From an uncultured bacterium (GTDB taxonomy: Bacteria > Caldisericota > Caldisericia > B22-G15): DNA of 15,543 bases. The position numbers and the translations under genes are program-made. The notes below the pieces were generated by a model. It was not told the origin of the DNA. It saw only the letters and a program-made list of their open reading frames with translations, and made no database searches. The stretch covers positions 1-15,543 of the forward strand of contig CBFDTJ010000034.1 in assembly GCA_965612865.1 (NCBI GenBank). The letters are read 5' to 3'. Positions 914-15,543 of this stretch are shown one piece after another (position 1 is the stretch's first letter; the number at the start of each line of letters is the position of its first letter).

Positions 914-943
914 ACCCACCTCCTAACAATCTAAACCAAATTA

Positions 944-972
944 ATGATAACCTGTTAAACCCCGTGTGTCAA
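944..972 (-). promoter_or_regulatory. sigma70-type promoter for the intramembrane protease gene
   Basis: Minus strand TTGACA (972-967), 17-nt spacer, TATCAT (949-944), about 30 nt upstream of the ATG at 913 and starting 2 nt after the livM stop. Confidence 0.7.
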
Positions 973-974
973 AA

Positions 975-1901
975 CTAAACTTTCTTCTTAAACAGATTGG
1001 GGAGGTAGATTAGACCCTGAGGGAGGAGCATCATAATTAAAATTATCATAATTCCATTAAATACATAGGGAGAGAAGGAGGTTCTTGCAAAAAACACGGG
1101 TATTATTGTGATAAATATTGCTCCAAGAATTGATCCAGGGACAGATCCAAGACCACCTATTACAATCATTGCAAGGAAGTTGAGAGATGCACCAAGACCA
1201 AAATCGTTAGGTGAGATGTAAGATACTGTGTGAGCGTAAAGGCTTCCAGAGATTCCTGCAAAGAAGGCTGAAATCACAAATACAAGGATTTTATAATAAG
1301 AGACATTTATTCCAAGTGAGCTTGCGAGAATCTCATTTTCTCTTAAGCTCTTAAGGGCTCTTCCCGTTTTTGAATTTATGAGGTTTATTAATAAAATAAC
1401 AGTAATTACAAGAAATATCAGGGATAAATAGTATTTGGAGAGGTCAGAAGAAAAACTCAATCCAAAGATTTCTGGTGATGGTATCTCTTTTATTCCATGA
1501 TATCCACCTGTAAATGAAAGGTAACCTATTATCTGAGTTATCGCAATTCCAAATGCCATTGTTACAAGGGCAAGGTAAAAGCCAGTAACTCTTAATGAAG
1601 GAAAGCCTATTAAAATTCCAAATAAACTCGAGACAATTCCAGCGATTATTAAACTTGGAAGGAATGGAAGGTTAAGTTTCATTACAAGTAGTGTTGAGGT
1701 GTATGCTCCTATTCCCATAAATGCAGCATGTCCAAGAGAGAGTTGCCCTGCTATTCCAAGTAAAAGATTAAATGATATAGCGCCAATGGAGTAGATAAGT
1801 GCAAGGGTTAAAAGATATATTATGAAACTCTTGTTAAGAAAAAATAGAGGAAAAAGAATGGCTATTATAAGAGAGACAATTACAAGATTTTTCCCTTTCA
1901 T
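975..1901 (-). CDS. livM: Liv/HAAT-family ABC transporter permease (LivM-like)
   Basis: 308 aa hydrophobic protein with GQLSLGHAAFMGIGAY, GFYLALVT and MIVIGGLGSVPGSILGA motifs. ATGA overlap with the upstream permease. Confidence 0.92.
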   Translation of the reverse strand: MKGKNLVIVSLIIAILFPLFFLNKSFIIYLLTLALIYSIGAISFNLLLGIAGQLSLGHAAFMGIGAYTSTLLVMKLNLPFLPSLIIAGIVSSLFGILIGFPSLRVTGFYLALVTMAFGIAITQIIGYLSFTGGYHGIKEIPSPEIFGLSFSSDLSKYYLSLIFLVITVILLINLINSKTGRALKSLRENEILASSLGINVSYYKILVFVISAFFAGISGSLYAHTVSYISPNDFGLGASLNFLAMIVIGGLGSVPGSILGAIFITIIPVFFARTSFSPYVFNGIMIILIMMLLPQGLIYLPNLFKKKV

Positions 1902-2770
1902 GCTCTCTTTACCTCCTTTCTGCCCATTAAACCGTGGGGACGTATAAGAAGTATGACTATTATTATGATGAGGGAGAGTGTAACCTTTAATTTTGTTGTT
2001 ATATAGGCTGCAATGAGATTCTCAAGCACTCCAAGAAGGAGACCACCAACAATTGCACCGGGAATGCTTGTAAAGCCACCAAGAACTGCTGCTGTAAAAG
2101 CCTTGATCTGAATTTCCTGCATCATATTTGAATGAAGATACAGGTTTGGTGCAACAAATACACCAGCAAGAAGACCAAGAATTGCAGAGAATCCCCATGT
2201 AAATGAAAGGACAGTTCCTATCCTTATGCCCATCAATCTCGAAGCCAATTCATCTTGAACAGTTGCTCTCATTGCTATTCCGTGAATTGAAAACTTTAAG
2301 AAGAGAAATAGACCAACTATAATTGCGATTGATATGATAAAAACAAAGAGACTGTATTTGTCAATTACAACACTACCTAAAAATATTGGTTCTCTATTCA
2401 CAAGGGATGGAAAAAGTTTCTCTTGAGTTCCCCATATAGTGGTAGCAAGTCCATTCAGGATCATTAAAAGCCCAAGGGTTATTATCATCATTCCTGCATG
2501 GGTTTTTTCTCTGACTGGTCTTAATAATCCCCTTTCAATGGCCATTCCAAATAGAAAGGCAAAGCCTATGCTTATAATTATCGATAGATATAGGGGAAGT
2601 TTTAAATATGTAAGAAGAGTATAGACTATAAATGTGGAGAACATTGCCATTTCTCCATGGGCAAAATTTACAACTCCAGAGGTTATAAAGACCAGCACAA
2701 TTCCAAGAGCTGCCAGAGCATATATACTACCCCAAAAAAGACCACTTACAACATTTTGAAGAAAAAACAT
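1898..2770 (-). CDS. livH: Liv/HAAT-family ABC transporter permease (LivH-like)
   Basis: 290 aa with GSIYALAALG, VVNFAHGEMAM, KAFTAAVLGG and RPHGLMG motifs typical of LivH. Confidence 0.92.
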   Translation of the reverse strand: MFFLQNVVSGLFWGSIYALAALGIVLVFITSGVVNFAHGEMAMFSTFIVYTLLTYLKLPLYLSIIISIGFAFLFGMAIERGLLRPVREKTHAGMMIITLGLLMILNGLATTIWGTQEKLFPSLVNREPIFLGSVVIDKYSLFVFIISIAIIVGLFLFLKFSIHGIAMRATVQDELASRLMGIRIGTVLSFTWGFSAILGLLAGVFVAPNLYLHSNMMQEIQIKAFTAAVLGGFTSIPGAIVGGLLLGVLENLIAAYITTKLKVTLSLIIIIVILLIRPHGLMGRKEVKRA

Positions 2771-2772
2771 TC

Positions 2773-3477
2773 TTACCTCCCAAGATAATATTTCCTGACT
2801 TCTTTTGTTTTTAAAAGTTCTTCACTTTTTCCCTCAAAGGCTATTTTTCCAACCTCAAGTATGTATGAGTAGTTGCTTATTTTAAGTGCCTGATAGGCAT
2901 TCTGTTCCACAAGGAGCACAGATACACCTGATTTATTTATTTCCTTTATGATACTGAATATTTCCTGTACCAGTATTGGTGCAAGACCCAGGGATGGTTC
3001 ATCCAAAAGAAGAATTTTTGGATTACTCATAAGGGCTCTTCCAATTGCAAGCATCTGTTGTTCTCCACCTGAGAGTGTACCTGCAAGCTGGTTTTCCCTC
3101 TCCTTCAGAACAGGAAAGTATGAGTAGATTTTGTCTAAATCTTTTAGACTCCCCTTTTTATCCTTTCTTATGTATGTTCCAAGAATTAAATTTTCCTTTA
3201 CAGTAAGCTCTGGAAATATCCTTCTTCCCTCTGGTACCATAGAGATTCCAAGTCTTACAATATCTTCTGGAGCATGTCCTGTTATATCTCTATCAGAAAA
3301 TAACACTTTCCCCTTATCAGGTTTTAGAAATCCACAGATTGTCTTGAGTGTTGTTGTTTTTCCGGCACCGTTTGGACCAAGCAGTGAAACTATGCTTCCT
3401 TCTTCTATCTCAAGGGATACACCTGATAACGCCTTAACAGGACCATAACTTACATAAAGGTTATCAACTTTTAACAT
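2773..3477 (-). CDS. livF: ABC ATP-binding subunit (LivF-like)
   Basis: Walker A GPNGAGKT, VPEGRRIF, signature LSGGEQQ, Walker B LLLDEPSLGLAP, LVEQN. Confidence 0.95.
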   Translation of the reverse strand: MLKVDNLYVSYGPVKALSGVSLEIEEGSIVSLLGPNGAGKTTTLKTICGFLKPDKGKVLFSDRDITGHAPEDIVRLGISMVPEGRRIFPELTVKENLILGTYIRKDKKGSLKDLDKIYSYFPVLKERENQLAGTLSGGEQQMLAIGRALMSNPKILLLDEPSLGLAPILVQEIFSIIKEINKSGVSVLLVEQNAYQALKISNYSYILEVGKIAFEGKSEELLKTKEVRKYYLGR

Positions 3478-4240
3478 TCTCTTCCTCCCCTAAGTAAGCC
3501 TCTATGACCTTATTATTGTTTCTTATCTCCTCAGGTTTTCCCTCAGCAATCTTTTCTCCAAAGTTTATTACCGTTACAGTATCGGAAATATCCATCACAA
3601 CAGACATATCATGTTCAATTAGAAAAAGGGTGAGATTTCTTTCCTCTTTTAGTTTAATCAGTGTCTCTTTCAGTTTCACCTTTTCCGTTGTTGTTAATCC
3701 AGAGGTTGGCTCGTCAAGAAGCAGGATTTCTGGATCAGCCATGAGTACCCTTCCAATATCTACCAGTTTCTGTATTCCGTATGGAACAGACAAAGGATAA
3801 TGATAGAGATAATTTTTAAAGCCAAGCTCCTCAGCTATTTTTATAGCCTTCTCTATGCCCTTTTTGTCAAAACTTTTTACTCTGTTTGTGCTTAAAAACT
3901 CTTCAAAGATATTTGTTTTAATCCACCTGTGATAACCTATAAGCATATTTTCCAGTATGTTTAAAAATTTAAAAAGCATAAGATTCTGAAATGTTCTTCC
4001 TATTCCCAGTTGAATTATGGAGTGAGGATGTTTGCTCAGTATATTTGTTCCGTCGTAGTAAATTTCACCTGATTGAGGGCTGACTATTCTGCTTATCGTA
4101 TTGAAAACAGTTGTCTTCCCTGCACCATTTGGACCTATAAGTGAATGAATTTCATCCTCCTTTATATCCATTGAGAGATTTTTTACCGCTGTTACTCCTC
4201 CAAATTTCACTGTTAGATTCTTAATATTCAGTTCACCCAT
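3464..4240 (-). CDS. livG: ABC ATP-binding subunit (LivG-like)
   Basis: Walker A GPNGAGKT, GIGRTFQN, PYG-type signature (SVPYGIQK), LLLDEP, LIEHDM, C-terminal VIEAYLG. Confidence 0.93.
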   Translation of the reverse strand: MGELNIKNLTVKFGGVTAVKNLSMDIKEDEIHSLIGPNGAGKTTVFNTISRIVSPQSGEIYYDGTNILSKHPHSIIQLGIGRTFQNLMLFKFLNILENMLIGYHRWIKTNIFEEFLSTNRVKSFDKKGIEKAIKIAEELGFKNYLYHYPLSVPYGIQKLVDIGRVLMADPEILLLDEPTSGLTTTEKVKLKETLIKLKEERNLTLFLIEHDMSVVMDISDTVTVINFGEKIAEGKPEEIRNNNKVIEAYLGEEENVKS

Positions 4241-4249
4241 GCTTCCTCC

Positions 4250-4281
4250 TTTAGAAGGGGAGGATTTCCTCCCCTTCTAAA
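4250..4281. other. Perfect intergenic inverted repeat (probable mRNA-stabilising or attenuating hairpin) between the binding-protein gene and livG
   Basis: TTTAGAAGGGGAGGA-TT-TCCTCCCCTTCTAAA, 15-bp perfect arms. No U-tract follows on the transcribed strand; the livG SD follows instead. Confidence 0.75.
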
Positions 4282-4289
4282 AATTTTAC

Positions 4290-5864
4290 CTAATCAGCAA
4301 TGGAAATCCAATCTGAAACTTTAGTCCACATGCCGTCCTTTACCTGCATGAAGTACATAGACTTCTTTCCAGAACGATCATTTGGAGCATATGTTATATC
4401 CTTTGCAAGCATTCCTGACCAGTGCTTGAATGTTTCAAGTGCCCACACAAGCCTCTCTCTTGTTGGAGGAGAACCAGCTCTTCTTAACCCTTCAACAAAA
4501 ACTTCTCCAGCAATCCAACCTGCCATGGCATAGGCGCTTGGAATTTCTCCTGGATGATACTTATCCCATAATTCATAGAACTTTTTAACTCCTGGATCCT
4601 TCAAGTCTGCAAAGACCCATGCTGATACATATGTTCCCTCTGCAGCTTCTTTTCCAGCAAGGGTTATAAGCAGTGGATCTGCATTGGGGTATGTTGTTAC
4701 AAACTTTGTCTTAAGTCCCAGTGAGTAAGCTGTTTTAAGGATTATTGATGCAGGTTTAAGGAGAGCATACATTATAACAACATCAGGTTTTACCTGTTTT
4801 AATTTTAGTACATACGATGTTAAATCAACTTCAGTTGGACTGAAACCAACTTCTATTACAGGCTTTTTGCCATACTTTTCAAGACCCTTCTTTACACCAT
4901 TCAATCCCTCTGTTCCAATATCATCTGTTTCATAAATTACTGCAATTTTATCCGCCTTTAACTCCTCAACAATATACTTTGCCATTATCTGACCTTCATT
5001 TGTAAAGTTTGGCTGAACTGCAAAGATGTAGTTCTTTGGTGGATATGCAAGTTTACTTGATCCACTTCCCTGATATACAAATGGAACCTTGTTTTCATTA
5101 AGATAATCCATCACTGCAAGACATCCTGGAGTTCCAAGTCCACCAACTATTGCAAAAACCTTATCCACCTCAACCATTCTCTTTACAGCTGCAATGGTCT
5201 TTGCTGGATTGAATTGGTCATCCTCAACAATGAGTTTAATCTTTCTTCCATATACTCCACCATTGTCATTTATGTAGTTGTAGTAGGTTTTATAACCCTT
5301 TACAAACTCAATTCCAATGGGAGCAACAGGGCCTGAAAGTGCTGCAAAGGCTCCAATTTTTATCTCCTTATCTGTAACACCTGGAATTGTTCTTGGAATA
5401 AGCTTTGATTGTATGTAAACCTGTCTTCCAAAAGCATCATAGAATACAAAGTATCCTGCAGTTTCTGAGATAAAGCGAAGTGGAACCATTGTTCTTCCAG
5501 GAGGGACAATTTTTGGAGCAACATCAATTACTATCTTTTTACCGTTTACATATACTTCCTTCTTCCCGATGAAGAGTTCAATGGTCTTCCCCTCTATCTT
5601 AACAGTTACTTTTCTTAACACTCCGTCCCAACCTACTTCACCACCAAGTGCTTCAATGACAAATCTGATTGGTACAAGAGTCCTCCCATTTTCTATGAAT
5701 GGAGCAACATCCATCTCCCTTTCAACACCGTTAACCATATACTTCTTCTCTCCAATTTTCATAACAATGGAGATCTCTGCTCCTGCTCTTACTGAGCCAA
5801 TAAGAGCAAAGGAACCCAGTAGAGCAAGAGATACCACTAAAATTACTGCCAAAAGCTTTTTCAT
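4290..5864 (-). CDS. ABC substrate-binding protein (PBP type 1, Liv-like) with N-terminal copper amine oxidase-like (stalk) domain
   Basis: Sec signal peptide without lipobox Cys. aa ~32-152 carry two DVAP-x-I..GRT(L/M)VP(I/L)RF repeats typical of Cu_amine_oxidN1/stalk domains. From aa ~160 PGVTDKEIKIG...LSGP...YINDNGGVYGRKI...EDDQFNP is a Liv-type type-1 binding fold. Confidence 0.9.
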   Translation of the reverse strand: MKKLLAVILVVSLALLGSFALIGSVRAGAEISIVMKIGEKKYMVNGVEREMDVAPFIENGRTLVPIRFVIEALGGEVGWDGVLRKVTVKIEGKTIELFIGKKEVYVNGKKIVIDVAPKIVPPGRTMVPLRFISETAGYFVFYDAFGRQVYIQSKLIPRTIPGVTDKEIKIGAFAALSGPVAPIGIEFVKGYKTYYNYINDNGGVYGRKIKLIVEDDQFNPAKTIAAVKRMVEVDKVFAIVGGLGTPGCLAVMDYLNENKVPFVYQGSGSSKLAYPPKNYIFAVQPNFTNEGQIMAKYIVEELKADKIAVIYETDDIGTEGLNGVKKGLEKYGKKPVIEVGFSPTEVDLTSYVLKLKQVKPDVVIMYALLKPASIILKTAYSLGLKTKFVTTYPNADPLLITLAGKEAAEGTYVSAWVFADLKDPGVKKFYELWDKYHPGEIPSAYAMAGWIAGEVFVEGLRRAGSPPTRERLVWALETFKHWSGMLAKDITYAPNDRSGKKSMYFMQVKDGMWTKVSDWISIAD

Positions 5865-5877
5865 ACTTAACCTCCTT

Positions 5878-7047
5878 TTAAATTTTTTTAAGTATTAGTG
5901 AAATTGCCTGTCCTCCCCCTATACAGAGGGAAACAAGCCCCAGTTTTTTACCACTCCTTTTTAACTCATGGAGGAGTTTCACAGTAAGGATCGCTCCAGT
6001 GGCACCAATAGGATGCCCAAGAGCAATTGCTCCTCCATTTACATTCAACTTCTCATCCGGTATGTTAAGTTCCTTCTTTATTGCAATGGCAATTGCAGCA
6101 AAAGCTTCGTTGATTTCAAAAAGATCAATATCTGAAATTGTAAGATTTGCTTTCTTAAGAGAATCTCTTATGGCATACACCGGTGCAATTCCAAAGTATT
6201 TTGGATCAACTGCTTTAATTGAGTATGAAATTACTTTTCCAAAGACCGGAAGGGCATTTTTTCTCAAAGTATCTTCATCTGAAATAATCATTGCCGCTGC
6301 ACCTGAATTTAAACCAGGTGCATTTCCAGCAGTGATTGTTCCACCCTTTTTAAAGGCTGGTTTTAATCTTGAAAGTTTTTCAAGGGAGGTATCAAATCTT
6401 ACAGTTTCATCCACTTCAAACACACCATCCTTTAATTTCACTGGAACAATCTGGTCTTTAAATCTTCCCTCTTCAATTGCCCTTTTTGCCTTTCTGTGGC
6501 TTTCAAGGGCAAACCTGTCCTGTTCTTCTCTTGTAATTTTGTACTTCGGGACAAGGTATTCATCTGTAAGGAATCCAGAATGTTTATCGTAGAAGGCATC
6601 GTTTAACCCATCTCTTGTTATAGCGTCATAGATTGTGGAGTCTCCAAGTCTATATCCCCACCTCCCTTTCATGATTAAGTATGGAGCCTGATCCATATTT
6701 TCCATTCCACCTGCAATTACAATTCTTGAAAAACCAGATTGTATTTCCTGTATCCCTGTGATAATTGCCTGAAGTCCAGACCCGCACACTCTATTTACAG
6801 TCATTGCTGGAACTTCTTGAGATACTCCACCAAAAATTGCTGCCTGTCTTGAAGGGTTCATCTTCTCTCCTGCAAGAATCACATTTCCCATAACTACATC
6901 GTCAAAGATATCCGATTCAAGCCTTGTGGTCTCAAGAATCCTCTCTATTACAATTCCTCCCAGTTTTGGAGCTGGTATGTCCTTTAAGCTTCCTCCAAAT
7001 TTTCCCACAGGAGTTCTAAAAGGTGCACTTAAGAAAACTTCAACCAT
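5878..7047 (-). CDS. Acetyl-CoA C-acetyltransferase (thiolase)
   Basis: VNRVCGSG (catalytic Cys), NEAF, GHPIGATG and CIGGG motifs all intact; 389 aa. Confidence 0.95.
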   Translation of the reverse strand: MVEVFLSAPFRTPVGKFGGSLKDIPAPKLGGIVIERILETTRLESDIFDDVVMGNVILAGEKMNPSRQAAIFGGVSQEVPAMTVNRVCGSGLQAIITGIQEIQSGFSRIVIAGGMENMDQAPYLIMKGRWGYRLGDSTIYDAITRDGLNDAFYDKHSGFLTDEYLVPKYKITREEQDRFALESHRKAKRAIEEGRFKDQIVPVKLKDGVFEVDETVRFDTSLEKLSRLKPAFKKGGTITAGNAPGLNSGAAAMIISDEDTLRKNALPVFGKVISYSIKAVDPKYFGIAPVYAIRDSLKKANLTISDIDLFEINEAFAAIAIAIKKELNIPDEKLNVNGGAIALGHPIGATGAILTVKLLHELKRSGKKLGLVSLCIGGGQAISLILKKI

Positions 7048-7055
7048 TTCTCCTC

Positions 7056-8354
7056 CTAAACAATATTTAGTTTTTTTGCTTCAAACAGAAGTTTCTCCCT
7101 AAACTTTGGATGAGCAATCTTTATAAGGGATAGAGCCCTATCCCTTACACTTTTACCCCTCAGATGAGCCACTCCATACTCTGTTACAACATAATCAACA
7201 TCCTGTCTCGGAACAGTTATGTAGCTTCCCTCTGGAAGGGCTGGAACAATTGTTGATATGGTTTCATTCTTCACCGTTGAACGAAGAGCAATTATTCCCT
7301 TTCCTCCCTTTGATAAAACTGCCCCTCTGTGTGTATCAAGTTGACCACCTGTCCCTGTGTATTGTTTCACACCAAAGGATTCTGAACACACCTGTCCTGA
7401 GAGATCAACCATTAAGGATGTATTTATGCTTACCATCTTTTCATTCTTTGAAACTATGTATGGATCATTTACAACAGAGCCCCTTAAGAGTTCTATTGAG
7501 ATGTTGTTATCTATAAAATCATAGAGTTTTTTTGTTCCCATGGCGAAAGTTCCAACCATTTTTCCCTTCCATACACTTTTTCTCTGATTTGTAATTACAC
7601 CTTTGTAAAACAGGTCAACCATTCCATCTGTTAGCATCTCAGTGTGTATTCCTAAATCCCTTTTATCTACCAAGAATTTTGTAATTGCGTTTGGTATTCC
7701 CCCGATTCCAAGTTGAAGAGTTGAACCATCCTCAATAAGTTCTGAAATGTTTTCACCTATTCTCTTTTCAACTTCTGTTGGTTCAATGGATGGAAATTCT
7801 AAAAGTGGTGAGTTGTACTCTACAAAATAATCAACATACTCTATGTTCAGCTGTGTATCACCAAATGTCCTTGGAAGATTCTCATTTATCTCTATTATCA
7901 CTGTCTTTGCCTTCTCAATCATCTCCTTCTCGTACACCAAAGATAGAGACAGAGATAAAAATCCCTTTTCGTCAACCGGTGTTCCAGTGCCGATAAAGAC
8001 ATCTATCTTCTCACTATCTATTTTGTCAGTTCCTGCAGCATGAAGGTTGTTTGGTATGTATGTTATTTTTTCCTTTTTGTATAAATCTCTCTCAAAACTT
8101 CCAAGATACCAGCTTTCCATTTTAAATGGTGCATTTTCTTTGTCAACAAACCTGTAAAATTCGTACTCCTTCAGTAAAAGACAGGTTATAAGTTTTACAT
8201 TCTCGACTTTGTCCTTGATGAGGTGAAGATTTGATAGAAGTCCTGGCGGTTGCGAGGGTCCAAGAGCAACAACAACAGTATCATTTGATTTGATTTTACT
8301 CAATGCCTCTTCAATGGAGACCAATTTTCTTTTGTAAGCTTCTTCTACATTCAT
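7056..8354 (-). CDS. Acetyl-CoA hydrolase/transferase family protein (4-hydroxybutyrate CoA-transferase-like)
   Basis: LPRTFGD, DGSTLQLGIGGIPNA, HTEMLTDG (catalytic Glu), TGGQLD, DYVVTEYGVAHLRGKS, IAHPKFRE. Confidence 0.92.
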   Translation of the reverse strand: MNVEEAYKRKLVSIEEALSKIKSNDTVVVALGPSQPPGLLSNLHLIKDKVENVKLITCLLLKEYEFYRFVDKENAPFKMESWYLGSFERDLYKKEKITYIPNNLHAAGTDKIDSEKIDVFIGTGTPVDEKGFLSLSLSLVYEKEMIEKAKTVIIEINENLPRTFGDTQLNIEYVDYFVEYNSPLLEFPSIEPTEVEKRIGENISELIEDGSTLQLGIGGIPNAITKFLVDKRDLGIHTEMLTDGMVDLFYKGVITNQRKSVWKGKMVGTFAMGTKKLYDFIDNNISIELLRGSVVNDPYIVSKNEKMVSINTSLMVDLSGQVCSESFGVKQYTGTGGQLDTHRGAVLSKGGKGIIALRSTVKNETISTIVPALPEGSYITVPRQDVDYVVTEYGVAHLRGKSVRDRALSLIKIAHPKFREKLLFEAKKLNIV

Positions 8355-9559
8355 ACCTCCTCCTTTAAAACACCCTTCAATCCATGCATAATAAAATTAA
8401 GCGTGGTCAATGTTACCTTCTTACTCATTTCCTTACTCTCTTCAAGAACAAACCATTTCATTCCAACACAGTGACCTATCCCCATAAGAGATAAAGCCAG
8501 AGCCTCTGGATCAGTTTTTATAATCTCTCCAAACTTCATTCCTATTCCAAGCCCTTTTTTGTATGGAGACAGGAGTCTTTTGTAGTACCATGCGCCAATT
8601 TCTCTATCAACAAATTCTGCTTCTCTCACTATTCTGTAGTCATTACCTATGTTTCTAAAGAGGTGGAAGAACGCCTGAAAACCAGCATTTTCAATCTCCC
8701 TCCTGTCATCAAAGTTCTTTGTGTATTCCCACGACCTTTTTCTCAATAAGTAGTTTATGTACTTTACAAGCTCCCATAATATTTCCTTCTTACTGTTAAA
8801 ATAAAGATAGATTGTGCCAAGTCCTATTCTGGATTCTCTTGCTATATCCATCATTTGGGTTTCCGAGTATCCTCTTTCCCCAAAAAGTTTTTCTGCTGAT
8901 GAAAGGATTTTTCTTTTTGTTTCCTCTCCCTTGGTGAGTATTTCGTCGCTCTTTTCCTCAACCTCTCTTTCTTTAACGATGTATGGTTTAAAATCTCCTT
9001 TTCTATCAATCCCCCTTTCTATCAACTTAAAAGCTGCTTCAATCTTCTTATTCTCTATCTCTTTATTGTCCCATATGAGATAATTTATGACTATGAAGTA
9101 AACACTGCCAAGGATTGAGAAAGATAAAGTCTCAAGATCTATATTCTTTTTGACTTTGTCTTTAAGCACATCTTCTATCTCATTTGTGGTTTTTTTGTAG
9201 AAATCCCTTACAAGATCTTTATTTACAAATTCCACTTCCCGAAAGATGTCATAGAGAGTGGTGTTTTCGCTTATGTAATTGATGTATGAGAGAAGTATGC
9301 TCTTTATCAATTTCAGTGCATTTTTTCCTCTTTTTTCCTTTTCTATTCTTTCAACTAAACCATCCTCAAATCTTTTAACAAGGGCAAAGTATATCTCTTC
9401 TTTGTTTTTAAAGTATCTGTAAATGCTTGCATTGGAAAGTCCTATTCTTTCAGCAATTTTTTTAATAGACGCATTCTTAAAACCGTTTTCTTTGAATGTA
9501 ACGATTGCGCTTTCCAGTATTTTTTCCTTTGTTTTTTTACCCCTTAAGGTTTTCTCCAT
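8351..9559 (-). CDS. Tandem (double) TetR/AcrR family transcriptional regulator
   Basis: 402 aa with two TetR HTHs (KKIAERIGLSNASIYRYFKNKEEI and MDIARESRIGLGTIYLYFNSKKEI) and duplicated C-domain motifs (REVEFV / REAEFV). Confidence 0.9.
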   Translation of the reverse strand: MEKTLRGKKTKEKILESAIVTFKENGFKNASIKKIAERIGLSNASIYRYFKNKEEIYFALVKRFEDGLVERIEKEKRGKNALKLIKSILLSYINYISENTTLYDIFREVEFVNKDLVRDFYKKTTNEIEDVLKDKVKKNIDLETLSFSILGSVYFIVINYLIWDNKEIENKKIEAAFKLIERGIDRKGDFKPYIVKEREVEEKSDEILTKGEETKRKILSSAEKLFGERGYSETQMMDIARESRIGLGTIYLYFNSKKEILWELVKYINYLLRKRSWEYTKNFDDRREIENAGFQAFFHLFRNIGNDYRIVREAEFVDREIGAWYYKRLLSPYKKGLGIGMKFGEIIKTDPEALALSLMGIGHCVGMKWFVLEESKEMSKKVTLTTLNFIMHGLKGVLKEEV

Positions 9560-10299
9560 CAGGGAATTAACCCTCCATCAACTCCAATAATCTGTCCATT
9601 TATAAATGATGATTCATCAGAAGACAGGAACAAGAGAAGGTTTGCAACATCCTCTGGTTCTCCCATTCTACCAAGTGGTGTTTTCTCAATCATAATATTT
9701 ATAACTTTCTCAGGAACTCTTGCCGTCATCTCTGTTCTTATGAAACCTGGAGCCACTGCGTTTGCTCTTATCCCCTTCCTTCCAAGTTCCTTTGCCCATG
9801 TTTTTGTCATTCCAATTATTCCAGCTTTGCTTGCTGCGTAGTTTGTTTGACCGATATTTCCATAAACTCCAACAACAGATGATATGCTTATAATATTTCC
9901 CTTTCCTCTCTCAAGCATGTATGGTACGACAGCCTTTGTTGTGTTGAATACTCCAGTAAGATTTACCGCTATAACCCTATTCCAGTCTTCTATATCCATT
10001 TTGCTTAAGAAACCATCTCTTGTAATTCCTGCATTATTTATAAGAACGTCAATTTTTCCAAATTTTTCATAAACTTTTTTAACTGCATCTGACACACTCT
10101 TGAAATCTGTCACATCAGCTTTAATTGCTTCCACTATTCCGTATTTTTCAATTTCTTTTTTTGCTTCAGTGAGTCTTTCTTCATTGATGTCGAATATAAC
10201 AACTTTTGCTCCCTCTTTTGCAAGAAGTTTTGCAGTTTCCTTTCCTATTCCCCCGGCACCACCTGTAATTATTACCACCTTATCCTTTACTCTGTCCAT
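9559..10299 (-). CDS. Short-chain dehydrogenase, FabG/PhaB-like 3-oxoacyl reductase / 3-hydroxyacyl-CoA dehydrogenase
   Basis: TGGAGGIG, NNAGITRD, GNIGQTNYAASK, VAPGFI, VDGG. Stop overlaps the TetR start (TGATG). Confidence 0.9.
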   Translation of the reverse strand: MDRVKDKVVIITGGAGGIGKETAKLLAKEGAKVVIFDINEERLTEAKKEIEKYGIVEAIKADVTDFKSVSDAVKKVYEKFGKIDVLINNAGITRDGFLSKMDIEDWNRVIAVNLTGVFNTTKAVVPYMLERGKGNIISISSVVGVYGNIGQTNYAASKAGIIGMTKTWAKELGRKGIRANAVAPGFIRTEMTARVPEKVINIMIEKTPLGRMGEPEDVANLLLFLSSDESSFINGQIIGVDGGLIP

Positions 10300-10308
10300 T
10301 TTTCCTCC

Positions 10309-11298
10309 TTAAACCCACTTAAATACAGAAGCTGACATTACATATCCTGCTCCTGAAGTGCAAAATGCAACATAATCTCCCTTTTTGATCTTACCTTCCT
10401 TGAGTGCATCATAAAGAGCCATGAAAACACAAGCTGATCCTGTATAACCAAACTTATCCATTATCCAGTGAGTTTTTGTAAGAGGAAGTCCAAGTCTATT
10501 CATTGCTTCTTCAATATCTGAGAGTCTCACCTGCGTGAATAAAACCATGTTAAGATCTTTCACGTCAATTCCAGCTTTTTTGCATGCCTTTTTTACCAGA
10601 TTGGGCCAATTGGCATAGTTTACATCTGGTGGATACTTGTGAAAATTTGGATGAAACCTTAGAAGATGCTCTTTTTTCTCCACCATTTCTTTGGTTATTG
10701 GATATTTTGTTCCAACATATATTCCATAGGAATCCCAGTACTGTCCATCAGTTACCATTGTTGAAGCTATATAGCCGGGTTCACTGGATTTTGTGAGTAT
10801 TACTGCAGATGCTCCATCTCCAAACATTGGTGCAAGAACTTTATTATCCCAATCAAGCCATTTGCTCATTCCATAGGATGCAACAACGAGAACATTGTTT
10901 ATCTCTGGATCAAGCATTATATGTTGAGAAGCAATTGTCATGCCAATTACAGCATCTGTGCATGCAGCATTCACATCAAAAGCTGCTGCATTTTTTGCTC
11001 CCAGCTTGTACTGAATGATGGGTCCAGTGGGTGGTGTAACAATATCCGGTGTATCAGTTGTAAGGATAATTAAATCTAAATCCTCAGCCTTCATGTTTGC
11101 CTCTTTCAGAGCAACTTTAGCCGCTTCAACTGCCATGTCAGATGCAGACTCGTCTGGTGCTGAAACGTGCCTTAGTTTAATTCCAGATAGGTACTCTGTT
11201 ACATCGTATCCAAGTCTTTTACTGAGCTCTTCGTTTGTTATAACTTTTTCAGGGAGGTACATTCCCGCTCCAGCGATTTTTGCAAATCTTTTTTCCAT
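10309..11298 (-). CDS. Ketoacyl-ACP synthase III (FabH)-family protein with non-canonical catalytic residues
   Basis: YLPEKVITNEEL, FDVNAAC (Cys113), FGDGASAV, SGAG. The HQAN and GNT motifs are replaced by TQVR and GYT. Confidence 0.9.
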   Translation of the reverse strand: MEKRFAKIAGAGMYLPEKVITNEELSKRLGYDVTEYLSGIKLRHVSAPDESASDMAVEAAKVALKEANMKAEDLDLIILTTDTPDIVTPPTGPIIQYKLGAKNAAAFDVNAACTDAVIGMTIASQHIMLDPEINNVLVVASYGMSKWLDWDNKVLAPMFGDGASAVILTKSSEPGYIASTMVTDGQYWDSYGIYVGTKYPITKEMVEKKEHLLRFHPNFHKYPPDVNYANWPNLVKKACKKAGIDVKDLNMVLFTQVRLSDIEEAMNRLGLPLTKTHWIMDKFGYTGSACVFMALYDALKEGKIKKGDYVAFCTSGAGYVMSASVFKWV

Positions 11299-11320
11299 GT
11301 CTCCTCCTTTTTAAAATAAT

Positions 11321-12385
11321 TTAGCCATTTTCCTTTATGAAATTTACAAGAATTTCGTTGAACTCTTTTCTCTTCTCAATATGGGGTGAATGAGCGGTAT
11401 CTTTTATAACCACTTCGAAGTACTTTCCACCTTTCTCTTTGTATTTTTCAAATACGTACTTTGTCTGAGCAATCATTGGTTGAGGTGGAAAAATGCTTTC
11501 CCCTGGATAGTTTGGAACAAAACCCATTTTTCCAAGATATCCAATGTCAAAAAAGGAGTTGTCAGATACAATCTTATCTTCTGAACCTCTCACCCATAGA
11601 ATTGGTGGTTTTGGGTTTACATCTACAATTCCACTTGTGTTAAAGTATTTTGGAGATATTGCATTTATCGGTCCAAACTTACCTGGGGCATAGAAGGGCC
11701 AATTCTTAGAAGGGACTGAATCACCTGGATACTTATCTGGTCCAATTTTTTCAAGAAGTGAAGCAGTTAAATAGTCTTCTTCTCTTTCTGGTCTGAATGG
11801 TGGTTTAAAGTAAAATTTGTTAATTACATTTCTTGGAGAATTTATACTTGATTCACTTCTATCCCTGTTTTTAATTCTTTCTACAAACTCTGGATTTACT
11901 CCACCTGCTCCTGAACCAGCAAAATCATCATAGCATGGTGTCCCCTTCTCATCCTTTGTCCCACTAAATCCAAATGGTGATACAGGAGCTATAACTGTTA
12001 GTGTTTTTACCTTTTCTGGATGATCAAGTAAATACTGCATGACAACTCCGCCTCCCACCGACCATCCCACAAGGTGAACTTTATCCAAATTAAGAGCATT
12101 TAATAACGAATCTAAGTCATCCGACCAATCTTTTGCACCTTTTGTGGCATCTATAATCTTATCTTCTGTTAAACCGTATCCCCTTAAGTCTGGTGCAATT
12201 CCAAAAAACTCTTCTGATAGATCAACAATATTTTCTTCAAAGTATGTTCCAGAAGTGAAATTTCCGTGAATGAAAATGATGGGTTCTCCCTTTCTCTTTT
12301 CAGAGAAGTGAACATTCATCTCTATGCGGTCTGTTTTTACCATTTTCTCCTCTATCCCCTCTAAAACATTTGGTTTCTCTTCCAT
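11321..12385 (-). CDS. Alpha/beta-fold serine hydrolase (esterase / intracellular PHA-depolymerase-like)
   Basis: HGNFTS oxyanion loop, PDLRGYG, lipase box GWSVG (Ser109), RGSED (Asp270), AHSPH (His332). No signal peptide; SD AGGAGGT at 12397-12391. Confidence 0.88.
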   Translation of the reverse strand: MEEKPNVLEGIEEKMVKTDRIEMNVHFSEKRKGEPIIFIHGNFTSGTYFEENIVDLSEEFFGIAPDLRGYGLTEDKIIDATKGAKDWSDDLDSLLNALNLDKVHLVGWSVGGGVVMQYLLDHPEKVKTLTVIAPVSPFGFSGTKDEKGTPCYDDFAGSGAGGVNPEFVERIKNRDRSESSINSPRNVINKFYFKPPFRPEREEDYLTASLLEKIGPDKYPGDSVPSKNWPFYAPGKFGPINAISPKYFNTSGIVDVNPKPPILWVRGSEDKIVSDNSFFDIGYLGKMGFVPNYPGESIFPPQPMIAQTKYVFEKYKEKGGKYFEVVIKDTAHSPHIEKRKEFNEILVNFIKENG

Positions 12386-12455
12386 CCTTCACCTCCTTAA
12401 AATTTGTTCTTAAGCCTAAAGACCCCTTTTAGGAGCGTCATTCTTCCCCATTATT

Positions 12456-12497
12456 ATTATACCTGAATCAGGTAAAACATTATACCTGAATCAGTTG
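12456..12497. promoter_or_regulatory. Two tandem palindromic operators (probable TetR-binding sites)
   Basis: Perfect palindrome TACCTGA-A-TCAGGTA at 12460-12474 and imperfect copy TACCTGAATCAGTTG at 12483-12497. Exact 16-bp direct repeat ATTATACCTGAATCAG at 12456-12471 and 12479-12494 (23-bp period). Confidence 0.8.
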
Positions 12498-12499
12498 TA

Positions 12500-12527
12500 A
12501 TTTTATACTAAATTTTTAATTTGTCAA
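12500..12527 (-). promoter_or_regulatory. sigma70-type promoter of the hydrolase-to-livM operon
   Basis: Minus strand TTGACA (12527-12522), 16-nt spacer, TAAAAT (12505-12500). The predicted start site (~12493) falls inside the upstream operator. Confidence 0.7.
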
Positions 12528-12561
12528 GAGAGTGTAAAAATACTTAACCTGTGGGGTTTTT

Positions 12562-13668
12562 TTAATCTTCCTCTCGCTCCATAACTCCCCACTCAGCAAG
12601 AAACAAAGGTTTGTTTGGAAAAAGGGTAGTCAATTCTTTGTATATAGGTTCCATTTTCTCCTCGAATTTTACCCAGGGTTCATCATGTGTTTGGGCTCCA
12701 TATAAGCTAAATCCTATCCAATCTACGTATTCATCTCCTGGATAATAATTCTCAATTTTGTTCCACTCTTCTTGAGGATACGATTCATCATTTGGCTGGA
12801 AATACCAGATAGCATTTTTTACATTTTTTTCTCTGAATAAATTTACAATGTGACGAAAAGCATCCACGAATCTTTCCGGTCCATCTGGTTTATCGGGATC
12901 TCCATAGGTTCTCTTTTTTCCTCCACCCTGAAATACTCCAGACCAGGGAAACCAGTCTCCATTCATTTCAACACCAAACGTGACCATTACAGGTTTACCA
13001 TAATCTTTTATAGTATCTGCCCACCTAGAAATAAAAGAGTCAAAGTCTCCATTTATGATTCTTTGAAGAGAGTACCTTGGCTGGTATTCAGGCTCCCAGT
13101 ATGGCTCTCCCCACGGCATAAATCTAACAAGCGGTATTGCTCCATACTTTGAGATTTCACCAAGATTCTTTCTTGATACGTAATTTCTTCCAAAAAAGAC
13201 AGAGAATGGAACAAAGGCTACTGATTTTCCTGAGAGTTTTTCAAAATTTATTAGTTCTTCCCCTTTTACAGAATCTTCATACTCTCCCCATCCTGGAAAA
13301 ACTCCTGTATAACAACCATTCTCAGGTGTAACTATTGTGTTGTCCTGAACAACAAGACCTTCCTTTCCTATGAAGTAGGAAGATTTAATTCCCCTTCTGT
13401 AAGCTTTCAAAGCTTCATCTGATGAGTTTATCCTTAAATCAGACCAGCTTCCATCATCGTTTTCCCATTTCTCGTGGTACACTATGGCAATTTTTACCTT
13501 CGTATATTTAATTTGAAACAAAGTTAATGCATCTTGATACCAGGCTGCCTTTGAATCCTTCACATATACAAGGAGGGGTTCCTTTGTAAAGGTGCAGCCA
13601 TTAGATATTATTATGATATTTGTAATCAATATAATTAATAATATTAGAAATATATTTCTTTTAATCAT
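12562..13668 (-). CDS. Secreted or membrane-anchored GH26-like glycoside hydrolase, apparently circularly permuted
   Basis: N-terminal hydrophobic signal ending in NGC (possible lipoprotein). GH26 motifs EMNGDWFPW (acid/base Glu234), YYPGDEYVDWIG and KPLFLAEWG (nucleophile Glu359). Start overlaps the upstream stop. Confidence 0.85.
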   Translation of the reverse strand: MIKRNIFLILLIILITNIIIISNGCTFTKEPLLVYVKDSKAAWYQDALTLFQIKYTKVKIAIVYHEKWENDDGSWSDLRINSSDEALKAYRRGIKSSYFIGKEGLVVQDNTIVTPENGCYTGVFPGWGEYEDSVKGEELINFEKLSGKSVAFVPFSVFFGRNYVSRKNLGEISKYGAIPLVRFMPWGEPYWEPEYQPRYSLQRIINGDFDSFISRWADTIKDYGKPVMVTFGVEMNGDWFPWSGVFQGGGKKRTYGDPDKPDGPERFVDAFRHIVNLFREKNVKNAIWYFQPNDESYPQEEWNKIENYYPGDEYVDWIGFSLYGAQTHDEPWVKFEEKMEPIYKELTTLFPNKPLFLAEWGVMEREED

Positions 13669-13987
13669 CTTTCTTCTTGGTTAATATAATTATAACTCCT
13701 GAGGCAATGATTAACAGACTTATTAAAGTTGGAATCAGGGAAAAATTAAAGAAAAACATCATACAACCACCAAAGATTATTAAACTTATACCTCCAATAA
13801 ATTCCCATTTCCATGAGATAAGAACCAATACAATAAATACAATCCAGGGTAAGGCATTGGGACTGTTCTTTATAATACCTTCAATTCCCCCTCCATACCT
13901 TTCTGTCCCGGATAAAATCGCAAAGAGAGTTATTAAAATTCCAAAGATTAATAAGATGTATCTTAATACATTTCTAACCCTTTCCAT
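13661..13987 (-). CDS. Small hypothetical membrane protein (about 4 TM helices, 108 aa)
   Basis: Hydrophobic ORF MERVRNVLRYILLIFGILITLFAILSG...NSPNALPW...WKWEFIGG. ATG at 13987 preferred over the track's TTG at 14023, which coincides with a -35 box. Confidence 0.75.
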   Translation of the reverse strand: MERVRNVLRYILLIFGILITLFAILSGTERYGGGIEGIIKNSPNALPWIVFIVLVLISWKWEFIGGISLIIFGGCMMFFFNFSLIPTLISLLIIASGVIIILTKKKDD

Positions 13988-13994
13988 TTCTCTC

Positions 13995-14023
13995 TTTATA
14001 TATACAAAGAACCCCCTTGTCAA
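13995..14023 (-). promoter_or_regulatory. Possible sigma70 promoter for the membrane protein + GH26 pair
   Basis: TTGACA (14023-14018), 17-nt spacer, TATAAA (14000-13995). The -10 lacks the conserved final T. Confidence 0.4.
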
Positions 14024-14035
14024 TGTTGAAAAGTT

Positions 14036-14857
14036 TTATCTGATTTCAATTACTTTCCCTACTCCATACTCGATAAAATTTCCCTTATACTCCTTTCTGA
14101 AAGCTTCTCCTATTAAATCACCTGTGCAATGGGATGGTGCAACCTTTTCTACTTGCAATTTTCTAAATTCTTTAATGCAAGATACGGGAGGACGGTGAAA
14201 TCCTCCTAAAACTAAATAAATATCTTTTTTCATCAATTCCTTAGCTCTCTTTACAATATTTACAATTCCGGGATGGGCACAGCCTGTAATAACTACCAAT
14301 CCCTTTTTTGAATCAATAATCAAAGATTGCTCTTTTGGAGGTCCATAGAGTTCTCCGGTTGTATAAACAAAATCAGAAATTTTTCCTGGAGTTGAAATCT
14401 CTACAAATTCGGCTCCCTTTTTGGTTATCATATTTTTAATAGATTTAGGAAAGGAACTCGGAATGAAGACCGTAACGTCACTGTTTCTCTCTAAAAAACC
14501 TTCCAATCCTCCTAAATGATCACCGTGAATATGAGAGATAACTACTTTCTTGATTGAGGCAGGGTTGATACCTAATTTTTCCATATTAAAAAGCAAAATT
14601 TCTGAGTTTCCTCCAGTATCAAAAAGTATTAGCTCCTTAGGGGTTTTTATTATAGTAGCAAAGCCCCAGGCAGTTTTCAGTTCTGGGTCTATTTGGTAGT
14701 TGTCATATACGGAAATCAAAGTTATTTCAGATTTTTCTTCTTTTTCTAATTCGATAGAAACTTCTGGCGGGGTTACTTTTCCTCTTTGAACTAAAAACCA
14801 AATTCCTGCCCCTATCAAAACCAGGATTCCTATTAAGATTAAGATTTTGAGATTCAT
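14036..14857 (-). CDS. MBL-fold metallo-hydrolase (COG1237 / DHPS-like MBL group) with N-terminal membrane anchor
   Basis: YDN, WGF, LFDTG, SHIHGDHLGG, TGCAHPG, GGFH and PSHCTG motifs. ATG at 14857 has GAGGT 9 nt upstream (the track uses TTG at 14866). Confidence 0.88.
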   Translation of the reverse strand: MNLKILILIGILVLIGAGIWFLVQRGKVTPPEVSIELEKEEKSEITLISVYDNYQIDPELKTAWGFATIIKTPKELILFDTGGNSEILLFNMEKLGINPASIKKVVISHIHGDHLGGLEGFLERNSDVTVFIPSSFPKSIKNMITKKGAEFVEISTPGKISDFVYTTGELYGPPKEQSLIIDSKKGLVVITGCAHPGIVNIVKRAKELMKKDIYLVLGGFHRPPVSCIKEFRKLQVEKVAPSHCTGDLIGEAFRKEYKGNFIEYGVGKVIEIR

Positions 14858-14862
14858 ATCAA

Positions 14863-15313
14863 TCAAACCTCAATTATTTTCCCTGCTCCACCTTCAACAT
14901 ATGTGTAAGCCTCCTATAATACCATAAACTTTACCGAATTGAGATGCTGTCTTAATGATATGTTCCATTCTTGGATGCGAGCATCCAGGTATTATCACAA
15001 TACCTTTTTCTGTCTCAACACAAAGAGATTGTTCTATTCCATCAAGTTCACCTGTAGAGTAGATCCCCTTATAAAGCTTGGTAGGCTTTTCACTTCAATA
15101 AATTCTCTTGCATTCATTGCTTCAGAAAAATAAGAGGGAATCCAGAGTTTTACTTGGTTATTCAGGCGAAGAAAAGATGAAAGACCTCCTACGTGATCTC
15201 CGTGGAGATGAGAGATAAAAATATCTTCAATTTCTTTTGGATTGATTTTAAGTTTTTGCATATTTGAAAGCAAAACTAAACGCAGTGTTGTCATAAATAA
15301 TGGTAACTTTCAT
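14863..15313 (-). pseudogene. Decayed paralogous MBL-fold metallo-hydrolase gene
   Basis: SD AAGGAGG + ATG at 15313 gives [12 protein letters not shown]; frame change at ~15278 to VLLSNMQKL...[10 protein letters not shown]...EVK; 1-nt frameshift at A-run 15087-15090 to [22 protein letters not shown]...PGCSHP...GGLH; frame change at ~14902 to YVEGGAGKIIEV-stop (14865-14863). Confidence 0.85.
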
Positions 15314-15475
15314 TTTTCTACCTCCTTACGCAATTTTTCATCTAAACTTCCATCAGGAAGCATCCAATCTGGATGCATTTCACCTTTCTCCTCCTTCTGA
15401 TAACGAACACAAATTTCCCAATCCCCTTTGCAATACAATTCTATCCACTTCTTATCCAATTTCCCTTCCTCATAA
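15310..15475 (-). CDS. C-terminal part of a small hypothetical Cys-containing protein, 5' end lost at the contig end
   Basis: YEEGKLDKKWIELYCKGDWEICVRYQKEEKGEMHPDWMLPDGSLDEKLRKEVEK-stop, with ATGA overlap to the MBL pseudogene start. The track's first 14 aa (MPSLVGSEMCIRDS) derive from adapter. Confidence 0.7.
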
Positions 15476-15543
15476 CTGTCTCTTATACACATCTCCGAGC
15501 CCACGAGACTAGGCATGATCTCGTATGCCGTCTTCTGCTTGAA
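15476..15543 (+). other. Illumina Nextera adapter read-through (sequencing artefact)
   Basis: CTGTCTCTTATACACATCT (Tn5 mosaic end, 15476-15494) + CCGAGCCCACGAGAC (15495-15509) + 8-nt index TAGGCATG (15510-15517, matches N706) + ATCTCGTATGCCGTCTTCTGCTTG (P7, 15518-15541) + AA. Confidence 0.99.

Follow-up and report, generated by a model that had tools for sequence, protein, structure and literature searches.

A FabH-fold clade with a conserved Asp-Cys-Thr/Asn-Tyr residue set, and its putative uptake and breakdown operon in a member of the Caldisericia

What can a protein with the fold of ketoacyl-acyl carrier protein synthase III (KAS III, or FabH) do once it has kept the nucleophilic cysteine and lost the two other residues of the catalytic triad? 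The question is raised by a gene on the minus strand of a 15,543-nucleotide stretch of DNA (the whole of which we call the window; assembly GCA_965612865.1, contig CBFDTJ010000034.1, positions 1 to 15,543) from an uncultured bacterium of the Caldisericota (class Caldisericia, B22-G15). In FabH, His244 and Asn274 are required for the decarboxylation of malonyl-acyl carrier protein (ACP), not for acylation of the cysteine. Because the encoded protein has kept the Cys and lost both the His and the Asn, its acylation would be possible and the carbanion of malonyl decarboxylation would not. We suggest that the protein is very likely not FabH but an ACP-independent, KAS III-fold acyl-coenzyme A (acyl-CoA) enzyme, with Asp82 as its putative base and a hydrolase as its partner, which serves a TetR-controlled operon for uptake and breakdown. 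The gene and its key codons are as follows.

10309 to 11298, minus strand: FabH-fold gene of the Asp-Cys-Thr/Asn-Tyr clade, an open frame of 329 aa
11053 to 11055, minus strand: codon of Asp82 (position counted from 11298, where the gene starts), aligned with the catalytic Glu of HMG-CoA synthase
10960 to 10962, minus strand: codon TGC of Cys113, the nucleophile, equivalent to E. coli Cys112
10956 to 10954, minus strand: codon GAT of Asp115
10534 to 10536, minus strand: codon ACG of Thr255, at the His244 position
10444 to 10446, minus strand: codon TAT of Tyr285, at the Asn274 position
10431 to 10429, minus strand: codon TGT of Cys290

The frame translates without a stop, and an AGGAGG ribosome-binding site lies ahead of its start. 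The product matches the Pfam domains ACP_syn_III (72.3 bits) and ACP_syn_III_C (80.3 bits). In the HMMER alignment to FabHs of solved structure, 'FTQVR' lies over 'PHQAN' and 'GYTGSA' over 'GNTSAA', and a MAFFT alignment with E. coli FabH (from NC_000913.3) pairs Cys113, Thr255 and Tyr285 with Cys112, His244 and Asn274. The retained Cys, the Thr for His and the Tyr for Asn had been described in an earlier reading of this DNA without database searches (hereafter the sequence-only reading), and their codons lie exactly where it had placed them. The 30-residue spacing that it had likened to that between His244 and Asn274 is reproduced by the MAFFT alignment. Its argument against a single-base error also holds on direct reading, since ACG differs from the His codons CAC and CAT at all three positions.

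These replacements are shared by the relatives of the protein. A word-indexed search returned 1767 relatives, of which the best 120 (52 to 95% identity) were combined with the query into a conservation set. Across these 121 sequences Cys113, Gln256 and Tyr285 are each invariant (121/121), and position 255 is Asn (74/121) or Thr (47/121) and never His (0/121). The TQ and GYT motifs, whose conservation had been left to an alignment of homologues, are therefore kept, with Gln256 and Tyr285 invariant and position 255 restricted to Thr and Asn. HMMER, run exhaustively against 1.84 billion representatives, yielded 13256 matches. Among 151 aligned rows (the top 150 and the query), 22 full-length proteins carry Cys, then Thr, Asn or Ser, then Tyr at the triad positions (the x-Tyr type), and 106 carry Cys/His/Asn. 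We compared residues between 119 close relatives plus 20 distant x-Tyr representatives and 107 canonical proteins, with fragments shorter than 300 aa dropped. Tyr285 is present in 119/119 close relatives and 20/20 distant representatives, and both His244 and Asn274 are replaced in all 139 aligned x-Tyr proteins. Two further residues in the sequence-only reading generalize less well: Asp115, two positions after the Cys, is found in 121/121 members of the close family but only in 1 of the 20 distant x-Tyr representatives, and the "extra" Cys290 lacks conservation altogether (Ser 75, Cys 45, gap 1; n = 121).

In a FastTree phylogeny of 162 rows (a random sample of 35 of the 119 close relatives, all 20 distant x-Tyr proteins and the 107 canonical proteins), a single branch (SH-like support, 91) separates the 55 x-Tyr rows from all the others. 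One change suffices to explain the x-Tyr state on this tree, a number as low as which was reached in none of 500 label shuffles. Judged by the tree, the x-Tyr proteins form a monophyletic clade and share one origin. The gene is also maintained: dN/dS is 0.055 against the ortholog in a congeneric genome, which indicates purifying selection, and 60 columns are invariant among 28 sequences of 53 to 81% identity. A decaying gene, which the sequence-only reading had named as one of the findings that would overturn it, is thus at odds with both the conserved substitutions and the dN/dS value, and the comparison of sequences indicates a gene kept under purifying selection.

Several lines of evidence separate the clade from canonical, decarboxylating KAS III, as the sequence-only reading had anticipated. 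His244 and Asn274 are replaced clade-wide, and all NCBIfam cut-offs for FabH are missed (NF006829, 218 against 249 bits; TIGR00747, 197.6 against 292.1; NF005308, 200.3 against 315). In addition, Arg249, through which FabH docks ACP, is lost. The residue at this position is Ser260 in the query, and the five commonest in the 119 close relatives are Ser (26), Asn (25), Ala (16), Gly (16) and Asp (12), with Arg not among them; Arg occurs in 2/20 distant x-Tyr proteins and in 80/106 canonical ones. Archaea, which generally lack ACP, also have members of the clade. Because of these members and the lost docking Arg, the substrates are probably bound to CoA and not to ACP.

The fold itself is that of FabH. 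The AlphaFold2 model (28 sequences) has a mean predicted local distance difference test (pLDDT) score of 88.9, with the lowest confidence at residues 190 to 230, and its best Foldseek matches are ordinary FabHs and BioZ (template modeling [TM] score, 0.84 to 0.88; identity, at most 31%). The FabHs of E. coli (1hn9 and 6x7r), Neisseria meningitidis (4ryb), Bacillus subtilis (FabHA, 8vd9) and Aquifex aeolicus (2ebd) share the fold at these TM scores, the two Pfam domains, the nucleophilic Cys at the N terminus of a helix and the Gly-rich oxyanion loop (Gly316 and Gly318 in the query). By HMMER and Foldseek, nothing solved in the PDB is closer than such FabHs, and no structure of a clade member was found there. 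The clade differs from them, at identities of at most 31%, in Thr or Asn for His244 and Tyr for Asn274, the lost Arg249, Thr or Ser at the Phe87 position, Ser315 at the Phe304 position and a new Asp82, as well as in scores below the NCBIfam cut-offs and, for the gene in the window, a location outside the fab cluster. Part of the loop after Met207, corresponding to Gly209-x-x-x-Phe213/Lys214, is rebuilt, with Pro223 at Gly209 and gaps against Phe213 and Lys214. Further clade-specific residues are Tyr142, Met144, Pro223, Asn227, Trp231 and Gly287, and the query carries the complete clade signature (Asp82, Cys113, Thr/Asn/Ser255-Gln256, Gly284-Tyr285, Ser315-Gly316).

Asp82 is the residue that most suggests a replacement chemistry. 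All 119 close relatives and 19 of the 20 distant x-Tyr proteins have it, at a position where canonical FabHs have Ser, Val and others. In an hhalign profile-profile alignment it lies over Glu80 of the 3-hydroxy-3-methylglutaryl-CoA (HMG-CoA) synthase-like protein of the same genome, 32 residues before the Cys112 of that protein. HMG-CoA synthase uses a Glu82/Cys114/His250 triad in which the Glu likewise stands 32 residues before the Cys (PMC11522927). The likeness thus includes an acidic residue that shares an alignment column and precedes the Cys by 31 to 32 positions, substrates of the CoA type (a presumption for the clade) and the lack of decarboxylation. It ends with the acid being Asp and not Glu, the His position being Thr or Asn, the oxyanion-hole Ser of HMG-CoA synthase falling over Ala317 and not over Ser315, and the scores against HMG-CoA synthase models (61.9 against 244, 44.2 against 360 and 37.8 against 353 bits).

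No His is conserved clade-wide in the close relatives and distant x-Tyr proteins compared. We considered His216 and His220 as a relocated catalytic His and rejected them as a trait of the whole clade: His216 is present in 121/121 members of the close family, to which it and Asp115 are confined, and it is variable in the distant x-Tyr proteins. In the loop that carries these residues, the HMMER and MAFFT alignments to FabH disagree, and the model has a pLDDT of 60 to 82.

The genes around the FabH-like gene point to catabolism of an imported compound. It belongs to a set of 11 genes on the minus strand with gaps of -14 to 55 nt, in which the hydrolase gene ends 22 nt upstream of it. The other features of the operon are as follows.

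11321 to 12385, minus strand: alpha/beta-hydrolase of 354 aa with a GWSVG Ser motif (Pfam Abhydrolase_1), first gene of the operon
9559 to 10299, minus strand: FabG-like short-chain reductase, 9 nt downstream of the FabH-like gene
8351 to 9559, minus strand: tandem (double) TetR regulator of 402 aa, two TetR_N stretches
7056 to 8354, minus strand: CoA-transferase of the acetyl-CoA hydrolase/transferase family (butyryl-CoA:acetate CoA-transferase model, 306.5 bits, below cut-off)
5878 to 7047, minus strand: BktB/PhaA-like thiolase (TIGR01930, 444 bits, over cut-off)
975 to 5864, minus strand: whole Liv-type ATP-binding cassette importer, binding protein and LivGFHM
4290 to 5864, minus strand: Liv-type binding protein
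3464 to 4240, minus strand: LivG
2773 to 3477, minus strand: LivF
1898 to 2770, minus strand: LivH
975 to 1901, minus strand: LivM
12527 to 12500, minus strand: near-consensus promoter-like site TTGACA-16-TAAAAT ahead of the hydrolase gene
12485 to 12495 and 12462 to 12472, minus strand: pair of palindromes of the ACCTGA-T-TCAGGT type, 23 nt apart, after the promoter-like site

Across 19 orthologs, the hydrolase shows no variation at Ser109, Asp270/275 or His332. Its best NCBIfam and PDB matches are polyhydroxybutyrate (PHB) depolymerases, far below the cut-off and over the N-terminal half only. The reductase exceeds the cut-offs of two FabG models (NF004198, 316 against 296 bits; TIGR01830, 309.9 against 297.75) and is, by its NCBIfam profile matches, of the R-specific FabG/PhaB type. 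The palindromes are a candidate operator for the double TetR regulator: 3 matches were found against 0.28 expected by chance, a count reached in 2 of 200 shuffles. The palindrome is not common to other loci, with an exact match in 2 of 110. The regulator joins two TetR units in one 402-aa protein, a fusion that also occurs beside the clade gene in 27 of 80 loci. In the Liv-type binding protein, a copper-amine-oxidase-N1 domain (residues 44 to 151) precedes the Peripla_BP_6 domain.

Similar neighbors accompany the clade elsewhere. A pattern scan of species genomes gave 274 matching stretches, from which 80 loci were kept. They come from bacteria (Caldisericota, Bipolaricaulota, Thermotogae-labelled bins, Dehalococcoidia, Anaerolineae, Ignavibacteria and Syntrophales) and from archaea (Bathyarchaeia and Njordarchaeota); a clade member with 47% identity occurs in Thermofilum. 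Near the gene in these 80 loci are small hydrolases (54 loci), hydrolases of the 354-aa type (24), short-chain dehydrogenases/reductases (SDRs; 44), AMP-ligases (42), binding proteins (34), double TetR regulators (27), SCPx-type thiolases (14) and DUF35 proteins (12), with 49 of the neighbors checked against Pfam. Distances were counted in the 54 loci that extend at least 1.3 kb to either side of the gene. A hydrolase was no farther than 300 nt away in 32 of them and no farther than 6 kb away in 50; for FabG-like SDRs the corresponding counts were 24 and 35, and an AMP-ligase occurred inside the 6-kb range in 33. Hydrolase, reductase and CoA-activating neighbors therefore recur across phyla. 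Of seven partner hydrolases taken from other phyla, six had a PcaD-type enol-lactonase as their best match, below cut-off.

The link to the hydrolase is illustrated by a sister genus (L108, G006:C1:333000-352000; L109, G003:C10:1-16000), in which an orthologous operon has its other genes 38 to 72% identical to those of the window. In place of the window's hydrolase and FabH-like gene it carries two different small hydrolases and a 44 to 45%-identical x-Tyr paralog that lacks Asp115. This swap suggests that hydrolase and FabH-like gene change together as one exchangeable pair. A complex prediction for the FabH-like protein and the 354-aa hydrolase scored 0.00 (mark, 0.32), a result that carries no weight either way.

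We propose that an acyl group from a CoA thioester would be loaded onto Cys113, with Asp82 probably serving as general base and Tyr285 and Thr255 probably as hydrogen-bond donor and acid, and that the enzyme would work together with the Ser-hydrolase encoded upstream. The operon would import an ester, a lactone or a 3-hydroxy or 3-oxo acid, after which the CoA-transferase would activate the acid, the FabG-like reductase would oxidize 3-hydroxyacyl-CoA and the thiolase would cleave the product. For the second half-reaction we tentatively suggest that an acyl group passes between an oxygen ester and CoA by a ping-pong mechanism. In a CoA-activated hydroxyacyl ester, the carbonyl of the ester bond would be attacked by Cys113 and the leaving hydroxyl protonated by Tyr285; CoA would then take the acyl group from Cys113, so that each ester bond would become an acyl-CoA without further ATP. 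Such a route would apply the logic of a reverse polyhydroxyalkanoate (PHA) synthase to the FabH fold. We chose acyl exchange because it gives every gene of the window operon a role. The operon would fit the CoA thiolysis of 3-hydroxybutyrate oligomer esters conjectured in the sequence-only reading, and the PHB-depolymerase-like hydrolase, the FabG/PhaB-type reductase, the BktB/PhaA-like thiolase and the failure to find PhaC all speak for transfer between ester and CoA. For the explanation as a whole, ester-to-CoA transfer included, we estimate a probability of about 0.45. A classical PHA cycle was rejected, as PhaC was not matched (TIGR01836 and PF07167) in the genome, which at 87.6% completeness does not prove its absence.

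Other observations weigh against this explanation. The chemistry of every clade member is inferred, and the placement of Asp82 and Tyr285 beside Cys113 is a prediction from homology. An acidic base at the HMG-CoA synthase position is the classic sign of proton abstraction, and hence of carbon-carbon (C-C) chemistry rather than acyl transfer. Usually the locus also encodes a CoA-transferase or AMP-ligase, so free acids would be activated anyway, and because a Ser-hydrolase is nearly always present, esters may simply be hydrolyzed. The PHB-depolymerase matches of the hydrolase are weak and partial, as noted above, and the PcaD-like hydrolases of the other phyla resemble enol-lactonases. Finally, the O-acyltransferases of the CerJ type need a His (PMC9573744), and the clade conserves none.

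CerJ and ChlB3 are known KAS III-fold proteins whose chemistry resembles that proposed. Both have a Cys-His-Asp triad and transfer acyl groups to hydroxyls, and the CerJ variant H295N is inactive (PMC9573744); Cys-borne acyl transfer from a thioester, with no condensation, is what they would have in common with the clade. They rely on their His-Asp pair, for which the clade offers no conserved His, and the query sequence, read against the Cys-His-Asp pattern alone, shows no Asp 5 to 6 residues after Tyr285. The match to ChlB3 (7eqi; E, 1.2e-15) is much weaker than those to FabHs (2e-45), and CerJ and ChlB3 sit in antibiotic gene clusters, unlike the clade gene in its importer operon. The analogy to CerJ drawn in the sequence-only reading is thus loose: KAS III-fold acyltransferases do exist, but the His that CerJ needs is not conserved in the clade.

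The alternative that survives best, although we consider it rather unlikely, is an enzyme that makes or breaks C-C bonds without decarboxylation, in the manner of thiolase, HMG-CoA synthase or OleA. Asp82 would abstract or return an alpha-proton, Tyr285 and Thr255 would polarize a carbonyl or alkoxide, and Cys113 would carry the acyl group through a Claisen or aldol reaction, or its reverse, on a short 3-oxo- or 3-hydroxyacyl-CoA; the reaction would be coupled to the FabG-like ketoreductase, and the hydrolase may release the product. The clade-wide Asp82 over the catalytic Glu of HMG-CoA synthase fits carbanion chemistry equally well, and hydrogen-bond donors always occupy both former triad positions (Thr, Asn or Ser, and Tyr), with Gln256 kept. 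The closeness of FabG-like SDRs (within 300 nt in 24/54 loci) also suits it, as does the SCPx-type thiolase and DUF35 pair directly upstream in 12 to 14 of 80 loci, in the order of the archaeal HMG-CoA synthase trio. A repurposing of thiolase-superfamily sites for aldol chemistry is reported for Sal and Ltp2 (PMC12329534). Yet the operon already has a normal thiolase, which leaves an additional C-C step without an obvious substrate, and its importer, TetR regulator and CoA-transferase suggest a catabolic rather than a biosynthetic role. Moreover, the His that polarizes the acceptor carbonyl in HMG-CoA synthase is absent, and the strongest neighbor link is to hydrolases and not to reductases.

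The loci with SCPx-type thiolase and DUF35 genes directly upstream belong to Bipolaricaulota and Thermotogae-labelled bins (L032, L034, L036-L039, L041-L044, L047 and others). Their thiolase/DUF35/FabH-like gene order is that of the archaeal thiolase/DUF35/HMG-CoA synthase trio, and it is followed downstream by genes for three SDRs and an enoyl-CoA hydratase.

A pathway to olefins or beta-lactones similar to the Ole system was rejected. The neighbors of the clade (KAS III-like protein, alpha/beta-hydrolase, AMP-ligase and SDR) bear the same family names as OleA and OleBCD, and OleA is non-decarboxylative with a carboxylate base. OleA, however, keeps Cys-His-Asn, of which the clade protein lacks the His and the Asn, and structures of Xanthomonas campestris OleA match only residues 28 to 139 (E about 1e-14). 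The window SDR is of the FabG type and not of the 3-beta-HSD type, and the operon includes an importer, a TetR regulator and a thiolase and lacks an AMP-ligase; since a CoA-transferase stands in its place, the role of the ligase in other loci is probably CoA activation.

Could the clade gene instead be the organism's working starter enzyme of fatty-acid synthesis, that is, a FabH with unusual residues? The genome of the window (G000; 1.42 Mb, 87.6% complete) has a type II fatty-acid synthesis cluster without fabH on contig C54.

C54, 464 to 904: fabZ
C54, 907 to 1824: fabD
C54, 1811 to 2566: fabG
C54, about 2603 to 2797: acpP
C54, 2816 to 4060: fabF

FabF is likewise kept in 5/5 other family members tested. 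Canonical FabH was not found in nine genomes of the window's family, three of them 100% complete, where ACP_syn_III_C matches reach at most 95 bits; the five family matches that were translated (G000, G001, G003, G004 and G006) are all of the x-Tyr type. The window's family thus seems to run type II fatty-acid synthesis without canonical FabH, and x-Tyr genes are present there instead, which would favor a starter role. We consider this role very improbable all the same: none of His244, Asn274 and the ACP-docking Arg is retained, the gene lies in an importer operon outside the fab cluster, a congeneric genome that is 91% complete has no KAS III-fold match of any kind, and clade members occur in archaea. 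In other families of the class, moreover, three genomes (G009, G013 and G014) have an x-Tyr gene alongside a canonical Cys/His/Asn/Arg FabH. Four such families have this FabH in 11 of 12 genomes, and the twelfth has an untranslated match of the same score.

The only other ACP_syn_III_C match in the window's genome is the HMG-CoA synthase-like gene, which is archaeal in style and is directly followed by a thiolase-like gene (L002, G000:C17:1-3210, ORFs 793-1842 and 1844-3001). At the start of contig C17 (about 1 to 70), an open-ended open reading frame (ORF) containing '...CLLYTSDAADE...' resembles what we take to be a translated Nextera adapter, which may mean that the contig was not fully trimmed of adapter at this end.

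An inactive or decaying FabH paralog without a catalytic role, for which the loss of two of the three triad residues might speak, is barely credible in the face of a dN/dS of 0.055, the 60 invariant columns, the strictly conserved clade-specific replacements, the intact frame and the strong ribosome-binding site.

In open-access papers and bioRxiv, subscription journals not being covered, we found no description of a KAS III-fold clade with Thr/Asn and Tyr or of its operon. Named clade members are labelled "ketoacyl-ACP synthase III" or "FabH" in public sources, and the ESM Atlas returned only generic "ketoacyl-ACP synthase III" clusters. As the clade is almost certainly incapable of FabH chemistry, metabolic reconstructions that count its genes toward fatty-acid synthesis would be wrong. 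The mislabelling weighs most in Caldisericaceae-like genomes, where the clade gene is the only KAS III-fold gene. The thiolase superfamily uses Cys-His-Asn, Cys-His-His, Cys-His-Cys and Glu-Cys-His as catalytic solutions, to which a conserved Asp-Cys-Thr/Asn-Tyr set would add a further one. The fixed pairing with a Ser hydrolase and a CoA-activating enzyme points to an unrecognized route of uptake and breakdown in anaerobic communities. In a wider reading, unlikely in our estimate, the FabH-fold enzyme would cleave oxygen esters, such as CoA-activated 3-hydroxyacyl oligomers or lactone-derived esters, with CoA in place of water. Functionally it would then mirror PHA synthase and would let energy-poor anaerobes and archaea keep the energy of the ester bond as acyl-CoA, and hydrolase, Asp-Cys-Tyr KAS III-fold enzyme and CoA-activating enzyme would make up a new, widespread catabolic module.

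Outside the operon, two neighboring ORFs of the window (14036 to 14866 and 15034 to 15294) both match the start of the metallo-beta-lactamase fold, and the 86-aa ORF of this kind may be a fragment or a duplicate.

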